DNA from: a virus
Lineage: Duplodnaviria > Heunggongvirae > Uroviricota > Caudoviricetes
IMG/VR virus record: IMGVR_UViG_2695420597_000012
Reading direction: 5' to 3' (one strand)
DNA length: 6,274 nucleotides
Positions 1-6,274 of the stretch are shown here, in pieces (position 1 is the first letter of the stretch; the number at the start of each line of letters is the position of its first letter). The translations under genes and the position numbers were made by a program. The notes beneath the pieces were generated by a model. It saw only the letters and a list, made by a program, of their open reading frames with translations, was not told the DNA's origin and did no database searches.

Positions 1-269
1 AGCCTTCAGGGAAAAATATCATCAGATGGCTGCTTAAAAAAAGAACAAATGGTAGTGTCCGCTATTGCCAGTACACCTCAGGATAGCGGTCATGTGATGC
101 CGGTTTCCCGGTAACTCAGCACCGGTATCTGAGTCAACGTTTTCTCTACTGGGTCATTTCCGATACGCCCTGCCTGCTGACAGGCTTTCATCACATCTGA
201 AAATATAGCACCCTGACTGATACTGTAGTACCTAAGGTTCCAGAAACTGTGATGTATCCGGCACAGAAA

Positions 270-288
270 AGCCCCTCCGGAGAGGGCT
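270..288 (-). other. Imperfect GC-rich stem-loop (7 bp with one bulge) followed on the minus strand by TTTCT; possible weak terminator or RNA 3' end
   Basis: agcccctccggagagggct. The unit 2 copy at 1901-1920 has one extra G, giving a perfect 8-bp stem. Confidence 0.3.
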
Positions 289-484
289 GGAGAGTGGCGC
301 TATGTGCCATTGCATGATGCCGGGTGCCTCCCGGTGAATTCAGTACCAGCACCTGAATCCGCGATTATCCCATATACCTACTCGCTGATTGCCCCTCCGC
401 ACAGGGGGATTCACCATGCCAGTTTCTTTTAACAAACTCCCCGCAAAACAGACAACTGTCAACCGTCTGAATTGTGAGACATTT

Positions 485-510
485 AAAAAAAAGGCCCGCA
501 AAAGCGAGCC
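485..510 (-). terminator. Rho-independent terminator directly after the tRNA cluster
   Basis: Minus strand reads ggctcgc-tttt-gcgggcc followed by TTTTTTTT (plus-strand A8 at 485-492, stem 493-499/504-510). It lies 15 nt after the CCA end of tRNA-Arg(UCU). Confidence 0.65.
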
Positions 511-524
511 AGGGAAAATAAGTG

Positions 525-601
525 TGGCGCGTTGTACTGGATTCGAACCAGTGACCGATTGCTTAGAAGGCAATTGCTCTGTCCGGCTGAGCTAACAACG
601 C
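525..601 (-). tRNA. argO: tRNA-Arg, anticodon UCU
   Basis: Hand-folded cloverleaf on the minus strand: acceptor GCGTTGT/ACAACGC, D-stem GCTC/GAGC, anticodon stem ATTGC/GCAAT with loop CTTCTAA, T-arm ACTGG-TTCGAAT-CCAGT, discriminator G, encoded CCA. The symbol is assigned from context (lambdoid ileZ-argN-argO cluster), not from a search. Confidence 0.8.
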
Positions 602-614
602 ATGATGCAGATAA

Positions 615-691
615 TGGACCGCCATCGGGGACTTGAACCCCGCGCAACCAGCTTCGAAGGCTGGCGCTCTTTCCTGATGAGCTAATGGCGG
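615..691 (-). tRNA. argN: tRNA-Arg, anticodon UCG (reads CGA/CGG)
   Basis: Acceptor CCGCCAT/ATGGCGG, D-stem GCTC/GAGC, anticodon stem CCAGC/GCTGG with loop CTTCGAA, T-arm CGGGG-TTCAAGT-CCCCG, encoded CCA. Unusual: position 1 is C, the discriminator is U, and A(-1) could pair with U73. Anticodon and symbol should be confirmed. Confidence 0.65.
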
Positions 692-698
692 TATGTGA

Positions 699-774
699 TG
701 GTGGCCCTTGCTGGATTTGAACCAGCGACCTGGCGATTATGAGTCGCTCGCTCTCACCACTGAGCTAAAGGGCC
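699..774 (-). tRNA. ileZ: tRNA-Ile2-like, anticodon CAU (lysidine type, reads AUA); formally could be Met
   Basis: GGCCCTT-TA-GCTC-AGTGGTGA-GAGC-G-AGCGA-CTCATAA-TCGCC-AGGTC-GCTGG-TTCAAAT-CCAGC-AAGGGCC-A-CCA. This closely resembles my recollection of E. coli ileX (tRNA-Ile2, CAU). Confidence 0.8.
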
Positions 775-814
775 GGGAGCCGCATAATAACGACGCGTAA
801 TTAATTCTTCAATA

Positions 815-1845
815 TCATCCGTTCTGGCTGACTAAATCCTGTACTTCCCGAACCGTCTGCTCAAAACGTTCAGTCTCCAGCTCAACGCCAATTGCACGAC
901 GCCCGAGCGCCAGTGCCGCTTTCACTGTCGAACCCAACCCCATGAAAAAATCTGCAATCAGGTCACCCGGACGACTGCTAGCGCTGATTATCTGCTGCAG
1001 CATTTCTGCCGGTTTTTCGCACGGATGTTTCCCGGGATAGAACTGCACCGGTTTATGCGTCCACACATCGGTATACGGCACCTGCACCGTCACGCCAAAA
1101 TACCGCCGCAGATGTTTATATTCACTCAGCAGCTCCGCATACTGCCGGTTCAGTGAGGTATACGTATCCACCAGCTGGTGGTGGAGCTTTTCCAGTTCAC
1201 CACGCCGATGCTTCTCTTCTGCCACCCGGGCAAACAGCGCCTGTAATTTCAGATAATCGCTTTCATTCGGCAACTGCCACTGACCGGCACTGAACCAGTG
1301 CGACACCATGTTTTTCTTTCCTGTGGCATCTGCAATCTGTTTTGCCGTTATCCCCAGGGCAGCTCGCGCATCACGAAAGTAAGAAATCAGCGGGGCCATC
1401 ACATGCTGTTTCAGTGCACTGCCCTTCGCCGCATACCCGGCATCTTTCGGACGATACGGCCCCTGATAATGTTCCGCGAACAGAATGCGCTCTGTGGCGG
1501 GGAAATACGCCCGCAGGCTTTCCTTGTTGCATCCGTTCCAGCGTCCGGACGGCTTCGCCCAGATAATATGGTTCAGCACACTGAAGCGTTCACGCATCAT
1601 GATTTCGATATCAGATGCCAGGCGATGACCACAGAACAGGTAAAGACTTCCGGCAGGTTTCAGCACCCGCCAGAACTGCGCCAGACACTGGTCCAGCCAC
1701 TTCAGGTAATCATCGTCGCCCTTCCACTGGTTATCCCAGCCCTCAGGCTTCACTTTAAAGTACGGCGGGTCCGTGACTATCAGGTCAACAGAATTTTCGG
1801 GTAACGACCGGATAAATTCCAGGCAGTCGGCGTTGATTAACTCAC
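815..1845 (-). pseudogene. DNA amino-methyltransferase (beta class), copy 1, missing the first ~9 codons and start codon
   Basis: Identical to 3793-4823. Motif IV DPPY and motif I DFFMGLGST are retained. The frame stays open upstream to a TAA at 1871-1873 with no in-frame ATG; the only GTG (1751-1753, used by the ORF track) lies after DPPY and has no Shine-Dalgarno. It could still be annotated as a CDS with a non-canonical start. Confidence 0.55.
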
Positions 1846-1900
1846 TAAAACAACAAAGTCCATAAGGAGTTTACTCACATCTGACAAAATCAATATAAAC

Positions 1901-1920
1901 AGCCCCTCCGGAGAGGGGCT
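1901..1920 (-). other. Perfect 8-bp GC-rich stem-loop (agcccctc-cgga-gaggggct)
   Basis: Direct inspection. Minus-strand downstream sequence is U-rich (gtttatattgatttt) but not a clean U-tract. Confidence 0.3.
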
Positions 1921-2116
1921 GGAGAGTGGCGCTATGTGCCATTGCATGGTGCCGGGTGCCTCCCGGTGAATTCAGTACCAGCACCTGAATCCGCGATTAT
2001 CCCATATACCTACTCGCTGATTGCCCCTCCGCACAGGGGGATTCACCATGCCAGTTTCTTTTAACAAACTCCCCGCAAACCAGACAACAGTCAACCGCCT
2101 GAATTGTGAGACATTT

Positions 2117-2142
2117 AAAAAAAAGGCCCACAAAAGCGAGCC
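2117..2142 (-). terminator. Rho-independent terminator after tRNA cluster 2
   Basis: Minus strand ggctcgc-tttt-gtgggcc + T8. One stem base differs from unit 1, giving a G-U pair, so the stem is kept. Confidence 0.6.
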
Positions 2143-2156
2143 AGGGAAAATAAGTG

Positions 2157-2233
2157 TGGCGCGTTGTACTGGATTCGAACCAGTGACCGATTGCTTAGAA
2201 GGCAATTGCTCTGTCCGGCTGAGCTAACAACGC
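2157..2233 (-). tRNA. argO: tRNA-Arg, anticodon UCU (copy 2)
   Basis: Identical to 525-601. Confidence 0.8.
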
Positions 2234-2246
2234 ATGATGCAGATAA

Positions 2247-2323
2247 TGGACCGCCATCGGGGACTTGAACCCCGCGCAACCAGCTTCGAAGGCTGGCGCT
2301 CTTTCCTGATGAGCTAATGGCGG
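2247..2323 (-). tRNA. argN: tRNA-Arg, anticodon UCG (copy 2)
   Basis: Identical to 615-691. Confidence 0.65.
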
Positions 2324-2330
2324 TATGTGA

Positions 2331-2406
2331 TGGTGGCCCTTGCTGGATTTGAACCAGCGACCTGGCGATTATGAGTCGCTCGCTCTCACCACTGAGCTAA
2401 AGGGCC
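2331..2406 (-). tRNA. ileZ: tRNA-Ile2-like, anticodon CAU (copy 2)
   Basis: Identical to 699-774. Confidence 0.8.
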
Positions 2407-2455
2407 GGGAGCAGAATAATAATGGTGCGTAATTAATTCTGCAATCTCATCCGTT

Positions 2456-3477
2456 TCAAACGATTAAATCCTGAACTTCCCTGACTGTCTGCTCAAAACG
2501 TCCGGTCTCCAGTTCAACGCCAATCGCACGACGCCCGAGCGCCAGTGCCGCTTTTACCGTTGAACCTGAGCCCATAAAAAAATCTGCAACCAGGTCTCCC
2601 GGACGACTGCTTGCGCTGATTATCTGCTGCAGCATTTCTGCCGGTTTTTCGCACGGATGTTTCCCGGGATAGAACTGCACCGGTTTATGTGTCCACACAT
2701 CCGTGTACGGCACCTGCGCCGTCACACCAAAATACCGCCGCAGATGCTTATATTCACTCTGCAGCTCCACATACTGCCGGTTCAGTGACGTATACGTATC
2801 CACCAGCTGGTGGTGGGGCTTTTCCAGTTCACCGCGCTGATGTTTCTCTTCTGCCACCCGGGCAAACAGCGACTGTAATTTCAGATAATCGCTTTCGTTC
2901 GGTAGCTGCCACTGACTGGCACTGAACCAGTGCGACACCATGTTTTTCTTTCCTGTGGCATCTGCAATCTGTTTTGCCGTTATCCCCAGGGCCGCGCGCG
3001 CATCACGAAAGTAAGAAATCAGCGGGGCCATCACATGCTGTTTCAGTGCACTGCCCTTCGCCGCATACCCGGCATCTTTCGGACGATACGGCCCCTGATA
3101 ATGTTCCGCGAACAGAATGCGCTCTGTGGCGGGGAAATACGCCCGCAGGCTTTCCTTGTTGCATCCGTTCCAGCGTCCGGACGGCTTCGCCCAGATAATA
3201 TGGTTCAGCACACTGAAGCGTTCACGCATCATGATTTCGATATCAGATGCCAGGCGATGACCACAGAACAGGTAAAGACTTCCGGCAGGTTTCAGCACCC
3301 GCCAGAACTGCGCCAGACACTGGTCCAGCCACTTCAGGTAATCATCGTCGCCCTTCCACTGGTTATCCCAGCCCTCAGGCTTCACTTTAAAGTACGGCGG
3401 GTCCGTGACTATCAGGTCAACAGAATTTTCGGGTAACGACCGGATAAATTCCAGGCAGTCGGCGTTGATTAACTCAC
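2456..3477 (-). pseudogene. DNA amino-methyltransferase, diverged paralog (copy 2), N-terminally truncated at the junction with tRNA cluster 3
   Basis: About 10 amino-acid differences from copies 1 and 3, a C-terminus 3 codons shorter (LIV* versus LVSQNG*), and many silent nucleotide changes. DPPY is retained; motif I is DFFMGSGST. The frame runs upstream into tRNA-derived sequence with no in-frame ATG. Confidence 0.55.
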
Positions 3478-3502
3478 AAAAGCGAGCCAGGGAAAATAAG
3501 TG

Positions 3503-3579
3503 TGGCGCGTTGTACTGGATTCGAACCAGTGACCGATTGCTTAGAAGGCAATTGCTCTGTCCGGCTGAGCTAACAACGC
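3503..3579 (-). tRNA. argO: tRNA-Arg, anticodon UCU (copy 3)
   Basis: Identical to 525-601. Confidence 0.8.
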
Positions 3580-3592
3580 ATGATGCAGATAA

Positions 3593-3669
3593 TGGACCGC
3601 CATCGGGGACTTGAACCCCGCGCAGCCAGCTTCGAAGGCTGGCGCTCTTTCCTGATGAGCTAATGGCGG
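3593..3669 (-). tRNA. argN: tRNA-Arg, anticodon UCG (copy 3, variable-loop variant)
   Basis: Same as 615-691 except plus-strand A to G at 3625 (variable loop TTGCG to CTGCG in the tRNA). Confidence 0.65.
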
Positions 3670-3676
3670 TATGTGA

Positions 3677-3752
3677 TGGTGGCCCTTGCTGGATTTGAAC
3701 CAGCGACCTGGCGATTATGAGTCGCTCGCTCTCACCACTGAGCTAAAGGGCC
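3677..3752 (-). tRNA. ileZ: tRNA-Ile2-like, anticodon CAU (copy 3)
   Basis: Identical to 699-774. Confidence 0.8.
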
Positions 3753-3792
3753 GGGAGCCGCATAATAACGACGCGTAATTAATTCTTCAATA

Positions 3793-4851
3793 TCATCCGT
3801 TCTGGCTGACTAAATCCTGTACTTCCCGAACCGTCTGCTCAAAACGTTCAGTCTCCAGCTCAACGCCAATTGCACGACGCCCGAGCGCCAGTGCCGCTTT
3901 CACTGTCGAACCCAACCCCATGAAAAAATCTGCAATCAGGTCACCCGGACGACTGCTAGCGCTGATTATCTGCTGCAGCATTTCTGCCGGTTTTTCGCAC
4001 GGATGTTTCCCGGGATAGAACTGCACCGGTTTATGCGTCCACACATCGGTATACGGCACCTGCACCGTCACGCCAAAATACCGCCGCAGATGTTTATATT
4101 CACTCAGCAGCTCCGCATACTGCCGGTTCAGTGAGGTATACGTATCCACCAGCTGGTGGTGGAGCTTTTCCAGTTCACCACGCCGATGCTTCTCTTCTGC
4201 CACCCGGGCAAACAGCGCCTGTAATTTCAGATAATCGCTTTCATTCGGCAACTGCCACTGACCGGCACTGAACCAGTGCGACACCATGTTTTTCTTTCCT
4301 GTGGCATCTGCAATCTGTTTTGCCGTTATCCCCAGGGCAGCTCGCGCATCACGAAAGTAAGAAATCAGCGGGGCCATCACATGCTGTTTCAGTGCACTGC
4401 CCTTCGCCGCATACCCGGCATCTTTCGGACGATACGGCCCCTGATAATGTTCCGCGAACAGAATGCGCTCTGTGGCGGGGAAATACGCCCGCAGGCTTTC
4501 CTTGTTGCATCCGTTCCAGCGTCCGGACGGCTTCGCCCAGATAATATGGTTCAGCACACTGAAGCGTTCACGCATCATGATTTCGATATCAGATGCCAGG
4601 CGATGACCACAGAACAGGTAAAGACTTCCGGCAGGTTTCAGCACCCGCCAGAACTGCGCCAGACACTGGTCCAGCCACTTCAGGTAATCATCGTCGCCCT
4701 TCCACTGGTTATCCCAGCCCTCAGGCTTCACTTTAAAGTACGGCGGGTCCGTGACTATCAGGTCAACAGAATTTTCGGGTAACGACCGGATAAATTCCAG
4801 GCAGTCGGCGTTGATTAACTCACAACTGGATATTTTTACAGTATTAAGCAT
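3793..4851 (-). CDS. DNA N6-adenine or N4-cytosine methyltransferase (beta-class, likely orphan, phage type), full length 352 aa
   Basis: ATG at 4849-4851 with an in-frame TGA two codons upstream. DPPY (motif IV) lies near the N-terminus and FxGxG (DFFMGLGST, motif I) near the C-terminus, the IV-then-I order of beta-class amino-MTases. No adjacent restriction endonuclease ORF. The Shine-Dalgarno is weak. Confidence 0.85.
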   Translation of the reverse strand: MLNTVKISSCELINADCLEFIRSLPENSVDLIVTDPPYFKVKPEGWDNQWKGDDDYLKWLDQCLAQFWRVLKPAGSLYLFCGHRLASDIEIMMRERFSVLNHIIWAKPSGRWNGCNKESLRAYFPATERILFAEHYQGPYRPKDAGYAAKGSALKQHVMAPLISYFRDARAALGITAKQIADATGKKNMVSHWFSAGQWQLPNESDYLKLQALFARVAEEKHRRGELEKLHHQLVDTYTSLNRQYAELLSEYKHLRRYFGVTVQVPYTDVWTHKPVQFYPGKHPCEKPAEMLQQIISASSRPGDLIADFFMGLGSTVKAALALGRRAIGVELETERFEQTVREVQDLVSQNG

Positions 4852-4944
4852 GGATCATTAAGCCTGTCTCTGATAGGCTCATTCTGCTTTTGCGCAAAGC
4901 AGTGGGCCTGAGGTTTGCTTGTGAACCCAACGCATGAGCAGATG

Positions 4945-4973
4945 GCTGGTGGGTGCCCCTAACACCCACCAGC
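4945..4973 (-). other. Perfect 11-bp stem-loop (gctggtgggtg-cccctaa-cacccaccagc), not followed by a U-tract on either strand
   Basis: Direct inspection. It lies between the terminator at 4986-5015 and the methyltransferase start. Confidence 0.5.
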
Positions 4974-4985
4974 CGCCCATTTACC

Positions 4986-5015
4986 ACAAATAAAAAAGCC
5001 TTCACTGCGGAAGGC
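4986..5015 (-). terminator. Rho-independent terminator after the 65-aa ORF
   Basis: Minus strand gccttccgcagtgaaggc (6-bp stem) followed by TTTTTTATTT. The ORF stop codon (5002-5004) lies inside the stem. Confidence 0.55.
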
Positions 5016-5199
5016 GTCTGTAACAACCGAACTGATAGTCTGCCAGACCCGCCATAACCAGCTGGGTCAGTATTAACTGGCAGCGTTCGCGTGAAAGGTA
5101 AGTATTCTGCGCTATCTCCCCGACTGTCGCCGGTTCGGTAACGCTTAATTCATTAAACACCACTCTGGCGGTTTCTGTCATATCCTGCTGTTTTAGCAT
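5002..5199 (-). CDS. Small 65-aa protein, possibly a winged-helix DNA-binding protein (PapI/FaeA-like pattern)
   Basis: ATG at 5197-5199 preceded by AAGGA 6 nt upstream (minus strand ggaaaaggaaaagacATG), with its own terminator. The segment TVGEIAQNTYLSRERCQLILTQLVMAGL resembles small winged-helix regulators. The fold assignment is by eye only. Confidence 0.4.
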   Translation of the reverse strand: MLKQQDMTETARVVFNELSVTEPATVGEIAQNTYLSRERCQLILTQLVMAGLADYQFGCYRRLPQ

Positions 5200-5317
5200 G
5201 TCTTTTCCTTTTCCGGTTAACGTGACACACCAATAACTCTTGTCGAAAAAGCCAGCAAGCTGAAAGACAGGTATTCACCGCCACCAGCGCGTTTACTGTA
5301 CTGACGCGATTTCAGTC

Positions 5318-5341
5318 ATAAAAAACCCGCCAGGCGGCGGG
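5318..5341 (-). terminator. Strong rho-independent terminator ~85 nt downstream of Q (tR'-like)
   Basis: Minus strand cccgcc-gcct-ggcggg (6 GC pairs) followed by TTTTTTAT. Confidence 0.6.
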
Positions 5342-5390
5342 GTGTAAAAAATCTTCTAACGTCAGGCATAAAACGCCCATCGTTAGAGCA

Positions 5391-5418
5391 AATTTACCAC
5401 AGATTCGGGAAAAATCAA
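5391..5418 (-). promoter_or_regulatory. Candidate sigma70 late promoter (PR'-like) just after the Q stop
   Basis: Minus strand TTGATT (5418-5413) - 16 nt - TAAATT (5396-5391). Hexamer match only; the qut site is not identifiable by eye. Confidence 0.25.
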
Positions 5419-5423
5419 CAACA

Positions 5424-6245
5424 CTATCGCGTTACCCTCTTTAACTGCCGCTCCGCCCATGCCTCTTCAATGTCAAACCGAACCACCAACGTATCGTAAA
5501 AGCGTTTCACTGATTTTTTCCACGTATCAAGCGTGATAGCACTCGTCACTTTGCATATGGCATTAAATGCCTCCGTTGATGGCAGCCTTTCACAGCCACG
5601 ACCACCACAACGCTGGCAGTCTCTGATAACAGGCATACCACGTTTTACCGACTCTTCACGATGAATGGCGACACCACGCCCACGGCAATCCTTACAGGCG
5701 GTGGAAACCTCACCCTTTCCGCCACACTCCGGACAGGCAACTTTTACCACCTCCCGATTTTTTTTCCATTCTTCCCAGTAAGACGGATACACACCTTTCG
5801 TACACTTTGCCCATACCGGCGGCTTACCATCCGGATACTGGACCTTGTTTGTAAAAACTACGCTTTCAATAAATTTTTCCCCATAGCAACAAGGGCACTG
5901 CTTTTTACTCGCTGCGCTGCGGGCATAATCCTCAAAAGCGTACGAAGCCATAATGCGCATCACTACCGGTTTTATTTCTGCCGGGAGTTTTCTTAACGCC
6001 GCCACGCGATCACACCGACTGAGTGCATATTCTGTCAGCAATTCTGTTGCCCGCTCTCTGTCATTCATACTAATGCCCATTTTCCCAAGGAACGCAGAAA
6101 ACCCCATCTCAGCCCGATTCTGTGTCATGCCCTGCGCGGCCATCACATCAGTGATACTCAGCGCATCTTTCGACGTTGAGGCCGATGCATCAGTCAGGCC
6201 GGGGGATTTTGGGGAGTAGTATTTCGGTAAATCTTCCAGTTTCAT
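5424..6245 (-). CDS. Antitermination protein Q-like (long Q family with DnaJ-type CxxCxGxG zinc-finger repeats), 273 aa
   Basis: ATG at 6243-6245, stop TAG at 5424-5426. Three CxxCxGxG-type repeats (CPECGGKG, CKDCRGRG, CQRCGGRG) plus CPCC. It sits immediately upstream of a promoter/terminator pair and the methyltransferase-tRNA late region, as in lambdoid prophages. Family assignment is from memory, not a search. Confidence 0.6.
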   Translation of the reverse strand: MKLEDLPKYYSPKSPGLTDASASTSKDALSITDVMAAQGMTQNRAEMGFSAFLGKMGISMNDRERATELLTEYALSRCDRVAALRKLPAEIKPVVMRIMASYAFEDYARSAASKKQCPCCYGEKFIESVVFTNKVQYPDGKPPVWAKCTKGVYPSYWEEWKKNREVVKVACPECGGKGEVSTACKDCRGRGVAIHREESVKRGMPVIRDCQRCGGRGCERLPSTEAFNAICKVTSAITLDTWKKSVKRFYDTLVVRFDIEEAWAERQLKRVTR

Positions 6246-6274
6246 TTTTTGACCTGCCCTTCAAGCATTATGGG

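Follow-up and report, generated by a model that had tools for sequence, protein, structure and literature searches.

[quoted passage not shown] In lambda the QBE sits between the -35 and -10 hexamers (PMC6266700; PMC9388147). A related arrangement gives rise to StxS (EcOnc15) in Stx1 and Stx2a phages, where a constitutive PR' between Q and the first late genes is followed by termination in lysogens; StxS is a PR'-tR' product, as the preliminary description of the DNA studied here had correctly stated, and it is released when a long precursor is cut by RNase E to 74 nt (PMC7547250). Two other short prophage RNAs are comparable in some respects. HnrS (EcOnc10-12), a multicopy 66-nt RNA of EHEC, belongs to the lambdoid late region and ends at an intrinsic terminator (PMC13502914), and IsrK of Salmonella Gifsy-1, as cited in PMC7547250, is a short RNA made from a prophage promoter under antitermination control. 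The effect of IsrK is in cis, on a longer transcript of its own.

The window analysed here is a stretch of 6,274 nt from a tailed phage (IMG/VR record IMGVR_UViG_2695420597_000012). Its minus strand carries what is very probably the cassette by which a lambdoid prophage with a lambda-family Q controls its late genes (Table 1). Judged from its sequence, this cassette is an unannotated, compact example of the well-known lambda-type Q/PR'/SDPE/tR' switch, and it would set the timing of a prophage late operon that here includes a DNA methylase and rare-codon tRNAs.

Table 1. Features of the Q/PR'/tR' region and of the genes that follow it, in the order of the minus strand.
Feature	Coordinates	Strand	Remarks
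Q antiterminator gene, 273 aa, lambda-Q family	5424..6245	-	Pfam PF03589, 5e-51
Q stop codon TAG	5426-5424	-	read directly; Q ORF is 6245..5424
Gap from Q stop to -35	5423-5419	-	5 bases
PR' -35-like hexamer TTGATT	5418-5413	-	read directly; lambda TTGACT sits in the equivalent place
Promoter spacer TTTCCCGAATCTGTGG, candidate Q-binding element (QBE)	5412-5397	-	16 nt
Extended -10 TGn (TGG)	TG at 5399-5398	-	last three spacer bases
PR' -10 hexamer TAAATT	5396-5391	-	same as lambda PR'; then six bases TGCTCT
Predicted start A5384 and sigma-dependent pause element AACGAT+GGG, AACGATGGG, +1..+9	5384-5376	-	same as lambda
Predicted 5' stem-loop of the short RNA	5384-5358	-	+1-4 with +24-27, +7-12 with +16-21; MFE structure
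A/U-rich single-stranded linker AGAAGAUUUUUUACAC, 16 nt, ARN repeats and U run	5357-5342	-	unpaired in MFE and centroid structures
Intrinsic terminator tR': CCCGCC-GCCU-GGCGGG, then UUUUUUAU	5341-5318	-	hairpin 5341-5326, U6 tract 5325-5320
Predicted Q-independent terminated transcript, ~65 nt, lambda 6S RNA analogue	5384-5320	-	from start and terminator
65-aa wHTH-like ORF, first after tR'	5199-5002	-	presumed Q-dependent late transcript
Second terminator, of the 65-aa ORF	5015-4998	-	terminator scan
N6 DNA methylase	4851-3793	-	presumed Q-dependent late transcript
tRNA-Ile2/Arg/Arg	3752-3503	-	presumed Q-dependent late transcript

The cassette is common in E. coli. A 141-nt region was matched in 2501 of the 5426 complete genomes (~46%), and the window region is 100% identical to a prophage of B2/ExPEC strains (UTI89, APEC O1, S88 and ATCC 11775). 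In UTI89 and ATCC 11775 the 65-aa ORF, the methylase and the three tRNAs are followed on the same strand by genes for holin, lysozyme, Rz and terminase, so that the genes downstream are a late operon; the window itself ends before these lysis and morphogenesis genes. The lysozyme gene is frameshifted in ATCC 11775, and some copies of the cassette lie in decayed prophages. Prophage Sp6 of O157:H7 Sakai carries the same Q (ECs_1524), together with an RNA (NC_002695.2, ~1554210-1554276, plus strand) that is identical through +45 and a G-U variant of the terminator, and K-12 carries a sister cassette in Qin (ydfT/quuQ), likewise unannotated in the MG1655 RefSeq record. None of the genome records examined has an annotated RNA or regulatory feature at the cassette, and locating PR', the pause element and tR' would allow the element to be annotated correctly in close to half of the complete E. 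coli genomes.

The gene directly upstream of the cassette belongs to the Q-lambda family, PF03589, as defined by Yin et al. (2022; PMC9388147). Its product is matched by phmmer to the lambda Q chains in the PDB (7UBM/7UBN and 4MO1) with E = 3.8e-39, and the two proteins align end to end, residues 1-113 and 182-273 of the window protein corresponding to residues 1-113 and 116-207 of lambda Q, with 29% identity over the full length. The remainder is a 67-aa insertion (residues ~114-181), located exactly where the zinc-ribbon arm of lambda Q begins, which adds two CxxC pairs (CPCC...CPEC) and matches the DnaJ CXXCXGXG motif below threshold; K-12 QuuQ has a 45-aa version of it. The insertion suggests a doubled zinc ribbon, perhaps linked to the different QBE, and because it falls in the region of the DNA-binding arm, the geometry with which this Q binds may differ from that of lambda Q.

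The preliminary description had proposed that TTGATT-16-TAAATT, beginning 5 nt past the Q stop and within 100 nt of Q, is a late promoter. Reading of the minus strand bears out the element and its position, and comparison with the region past Q in lambda (lambda 43800-45300) supports its proposed role. Lambda PR' reads TTGACT-17-TAAATT-TGACTC-AACGATGGG, and its counterpart in the window is TTGATT-16-TAAATT-TGCTCT-AACGATGGG. The two have in common the -10 hexamer, its distance of 6 nt from the start and every one of the first nine bases transcribed, and by this homology a putative sigma-70 PR' lies soon after the Q stop. The identity of the -10 hexamer and of +1..+9 in turn places the window +1 at A5384, the position homologous to lambda +1 and the one that had been predicted (~5384). 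In lambda, taking the first A of AACGAT as +1 puts the T run of tR' 188-193 nt downstream, in agreement with a 6S RNA of ~194 nt, and the assignment of +1 is therefore consistent.

The two cassettes also share the family of their Q proteins, the place of the -35 hexamer, a protein-binding spacer between -35 and -10 (a candidate in the window) and a terminator before the late genes. They differ in the sequence and length of this spacer, which is 17 nt in lambda and 16 nt with an extended -10 TG in the window; in the -35-like element adjoining the pause element, which is TTGACT in lambda but a degenerate TTG-CTC in the window; in Q itself, owing to its divergence and the arm insertion; and in the short RNA, 194 nt in lambda and ~65 nt here, which cannot be aligned with 6S RNA past ~+9.

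The strongest evidence for reading this site as a late promoter, and one that the preliminary description had missed, is the putative pause element, AACGAT at +1..+6 followed by GGG, which we take to be the lambda -10-like SDPE at which Q is loaded. A generic sigma-70 scan of 4700-6274, with a threshold of 9 of the 12 consensus positions, called no promoter anywhere; PR' matches at 8 of 12 and was missed for that reason, and we accept it on homology, not on its consensus score. Promoter and terminator prediction, which had been put forward as a check, therefore recovered the terminator and left the promoter just under the threshold of the scan. The lack of a called promoter would suit a simpler account, in which the hairpin is a plain terminator of the Q gene or of the early-right operon and the promoter hexamers are a chance match, and so would the position of the hairpin, 83 nt past the Q stop, where it would also end unmodified polymerases arriving from upstream. 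We regard this account as highly improbable. The exact hexamer-spacer-hexamer pattern is expected 0.04 times per shuffled window, and the combination of the lambda PR' -10 and pause element, TAAATT-N6-AACGATGGG, which covers 21 positions, only 0.01 times; the generic scan offers no other promoter candidate between Q and the lysis-gene leader in the window; and promoter, spacer and pause element are kept across genera, whereas the stretch from the Q stop to the -35 hexamer is not.

This conservation was followed in a broad set of relatives, and it favours the late-promoter reading. A genome scan with the Q protein found 41 loci, at 39-97% protein identity, in Escherichia, Klebsiella, Enterobacter, Kluyvera, Silvania, Pseudescherichia, Leclercia, Yokenella, Mangrovibacter, Kosakonia, Buttiauxella and other genera, and a scan of viral contigs found 80 close relatives, for a total of ~120 loci from more than 10 enterobacterial genera. 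The loci, with Q relatives 39-100% identical, were compared with the pause element as anchor. Almost every one keeps the same order of elements, beginning 37-72 nt past the Q stop: a -35-like hexamer, a spacer, a -10 hexamer, 6 nt, an element like AACGATGGG, a body of 20-45 nt, and a GC hairpin with a T run. In most of the other genera the -35 hexamer reads TTTACT. The 31 distinct variants of the window-type RNA all keep A2 and T6 of the pause element, which correspond to the two positions that matter most in a -10 hexamer, and they differ at positions 1, 3, 4 and 5 (AATGAT, AAAGAT, AATTAT, AACAAT, GATGAT, AAAAAT, AACGCT).

Of all parts of a promoter, the spacer is usually under the least constraint, yet it hardly varies (TTTCC[C/G]GAATCTGTG) among 24 distinct sequences from genera whose Q proteins are 53-100% identical to that of the window. 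The QuuQ clade (Q ~40% identical, including K-12 Qin) has TTCAAAAAAnnTGG in its place, and lambda has TATTGAATAAAATTGGG. A spacer that is fixed within a clade of Q and switched between clades has the signature expected of a QBE that co-evolves with Q, and the spacer is presumed to be the QBE. The stretch between the Q stop and the -35 hexamer, by comparison, is unconserved, differing in sequence and ranging from 5 to ~38 nt, and the linker of the RNA varies between clades in both length and sequence and is A-rich throughout. The QuuQ clade, typified by K-12 Qin quuQ (ydfT), has a homologous cassette that shares the pause element and the class of the RNA 5' domain (AACGATGGGCTTTGTATACCCGACGTT...) with the window and would give a terminated product of ~63 nt, and it differs in the spacer, in Q and in its -10 hexamer, TAAAAT or TAGGAT. 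The three Q clades, each with a spacer type of its own and all with the one pause element, amount to a natural experiment on Q-QBE specificity, one that concerns lambda-family Q proteins with an enlarged zinc-ribbon arm.

Between PR' and the late genes lies an intrinsic terminator. The 6-bp GC hairpin with a U-tract reported earlier at 5318-5341 was confirmed both by direct reading and by a terminator scan, in which the hairpin at 5341-5326, with six pairs, all G-C, and a loop of 4, is the best terminator in 4700-6274; its fold energy is -12.6 kcal/mol. The hairpin had been placed ~50-70 nt from the start, which is loose but acceptable, as it begins at +44 and is followed by a U tract with its last base at +65; the same two positions agree with the length of ~65 nt that had been given for the predicted transcript. 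A terminator with a perfect stem is present in 59 of the 61 distinct homologous sequences, and in the remaining two the hairpin is there with a single defect. Across these homologues the predicted RNA is 57-75 nt long (median 66), compared with 65-67 nt for the window RNA. Since the stems differ between clades (CCCGCC/GGCGGG, GCCCTGCGG/CCGTGGGGC, ACCTCGC/GCGGGGT and others), it is the function of the terminator that has been kept and not a particular sequence.

From homology with lambda we infer the course of transcription, pausing, Q binding and readthrough at this site. Host sigma-70 RNA polymerase would start constitutively at PR' (TTGATT-16-TGgTAAATT), at A5384. Region 2 of sigma would then re-bind the non-template strand at AACGAT (+1..+6), and the polymerase would pause after ~16-17 nt, a position at which the conserved T17-G18 appears to fit the usual preference of pause sites. 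When Q is lacking, the polymerase would escape and end at the GC hairpin and U tract (5341-5320), releasing a 65-67-nt RNA with its end at 5320 +/- 2; through termination at tR', the downstream ORF, the methylase, the tRNAs and the lysis and morphogenesis genes would then not be transcribed from PR'. On prophage induction Q would be made, bind the spacer TTTCCCGAATCTGTGG between -35 and -10, load onto the paused complex and convert it to a termination-resistant form, and the modified polymerase would read through both tR' and the terminator at 5015-4998 into the late genes. The Q-dependence proposed for the ORF, the methylase and the tRNAs would follow from this mechanism of readthrough, and the late region may have additional internal promoters.

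[quoted passage not shown] It is possible, although we consider it unlikely, that besides being the product of the cassette described above the ~65-nt RNA is an Hfq-associated sRNA, trans-acting or a sponge, that is made in lysogens. There are precedents in StxS, a PR'-tR' product itself (PMC7547250), and in lambda 6S RNA, which is bound by Hfq and present in lysogens and for which a role as an sRNA has been suggested (bioRxiv 10.1101/2024.10.31.621285). The anatomy of the window RNA fits an sRNA of the Hfq type, with a 5' stem-loop, a single-stranded linker of AGAAGA and U6, and a GC terminator with a U6 tail, and its predicted fold (-21.9 kcal/mol, z = -2.48) is stabler than those of shuffled sequences. 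The first 27 nt, moreover, are common to Q clades that are ~40% identical and have different QBEs, but this conservation of +1..+27 could equally reflect the needs of pausing and Q loading at the level of DNA.

Several comparisons weigh against such a role or lend it no support. StxS, for which Hfq binding and targets are known, has no similarity to the window RNA in blastn, the Sp15 region giving only generic terminator-like matches. The two also differ in setting and origin: StxS lies behind a much shorter Q (483 bp, ~160 aa, in Sp15), and it is a processed RNA, whereas the window RNA is predicted to be a primary transcript. Against lambda, blastn matches the -10/pause segment only, and similarity to 6S RNA ends past the pause element. 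The Sakai Sp6 copy is absent from the 64 orphan Hfq peaks that Tree et al. (2014) list, an absence that is weak evidence because the peak list was thresholded. Across the 31 variants, 91% of the cells of the 5' hairpin are paired, but compensatory double changes are lacking and the pairing is no better than in shuffled sequences, so that the 5' stem-loop is a prediction only. Complementarity of the linker to the ribosome-binding sites of the two downstream ORFs, sought by analogy with StxS and stx1B, was likewise no better than for shuffled seeds. The region of the cassette matched no Rfam family at gathering or permissive thresholds, which is uninformative, as Rfam also has no families for lambda 6S RNA or StxS; an isrK family, if Rfam 15 holds one, is not among the weak matches listed, and no Rfam family reached its gathering score. 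A full-text search of the paper library used here with the RNA and spacer sequences returned no match.

Were the RNA functional, the StxS paradigm would no longer be limited to toxin phages but would take in common cryptic prophages as well. With nearly half of the sequenced E. coli carrying the element, among them K-12 (Qin), O157 (Sp6) and ExPEC strains, one may speculate, with some reserve, about a widespread and so far unnamed family of prophage sRNAs: a constitutive RNA of the Hfq type whose 5' domain and A/U linker would act on host or phage RNAs. In a related observation, CGTT, the complement of the 5'-terminal AACG, recurs at +24..27 in the window-type RNAs and at +20..23 in the other class of RNA and in lambda; all of these transcripts could thus close a 5'-terminal stem, a pairing that is without covariation support.

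The short transcript also contains an ATG at +5, within AACGATGGG, from which an open frame of 22 codons (MGVLCLTLEDFLHPAAWRVFYD) runs through the terminator, and lambda orf-64 begins inside 6S RNA. That the transcript is instead a leaderless or nearly leaderless mRNA for a micro-protein nevertheless seems to us exceedingly unlikely, as the ATG has no Shine-Dalgarno sequence and is a by-product of the pause element that disappears in variants such as AACGCTGGG, and as neither the length of the frame nor the peptide is conserved between clades, the changes showing no bias to third codon positions.

Identity of the RNA with HnrS was considered separately, given their similar size, and rejected. 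HnrS/EcOnc11 comes after the Rz endopeptidase gene of Sp10, where it is antisense to the late operon, on the opposite strand, and the 15-nt complement of HnrS to mazF is absent from the window RNA and from all of the loci compared. A scan of the viral contigs for the HnrS 15-mer gave 24 matches.

Among the E. coli copies, similarity ends right after the T tract (at ~5318 in the window) and just upstream of the -35 hexamer, and recombination breakpoints directly past the T tract argue that the module is inherited as a unit. By its boundaries the cassette acts as a module that is followed by an insertion site for morons, in agreement with Tree et al. (2014; PMC4104026), who found convergent prophage sRNAs in the region behind the moron site. 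At least four unrelated continuations are seen past the T tract of tR' in E. coli prophages, including, in strain AR434, a direct fusion to tRNA genes, and comparison of these prophages marks the stretch past the T tract as a hotspot of recombination and moron insertion.

The product of the 65-aa ORF in this stretch (5002-5199, minus strand) gives a weak match to TrmB-like winged-helix domains (E = 0.0026); the protein occurs widely in Stx2 phages and phiP27, under the annotation of a TrmB family regulator. Between the terminator of this ORF and the methylase gene, positions 4944-4974 hold a long perfect inverted repeat, GGCTGGTGGGTG...CACCCACCAGCC, which Rfam matches to Pseudomonas P26 below threshold (24 bits; gathering score 36).

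Further downstream, positions 267-4825 consist of three tandem units, each containing the 3' ~0.94 kb of the N6 DNA methylase gene with tRNA-Ile2(CAT), tRNA-Arg(TCG) and tRNA-Arg(TCT). The copies at 499-1845 and 3477-4823 are 99.9% identical, and the middle copy, at 2129-3479, is 96.2% identical. The unit is single-copy in UTI89 and ATCC 11775, and the triplicated layout has no collinear match in the complete E. coli genomes; it could reflect a real amplification, prophages that recombined with each other, or an error of assembly. Two of the three tRNA clusters have downstream of them, in the region behind the moron site in which Tree et al. found their sRNAs, strong matches to the Rfam sRNA family STnc100 (259-448 and 1891-2080, minus strand), which score 124 and 132 bits, well above the gathering score of 47.
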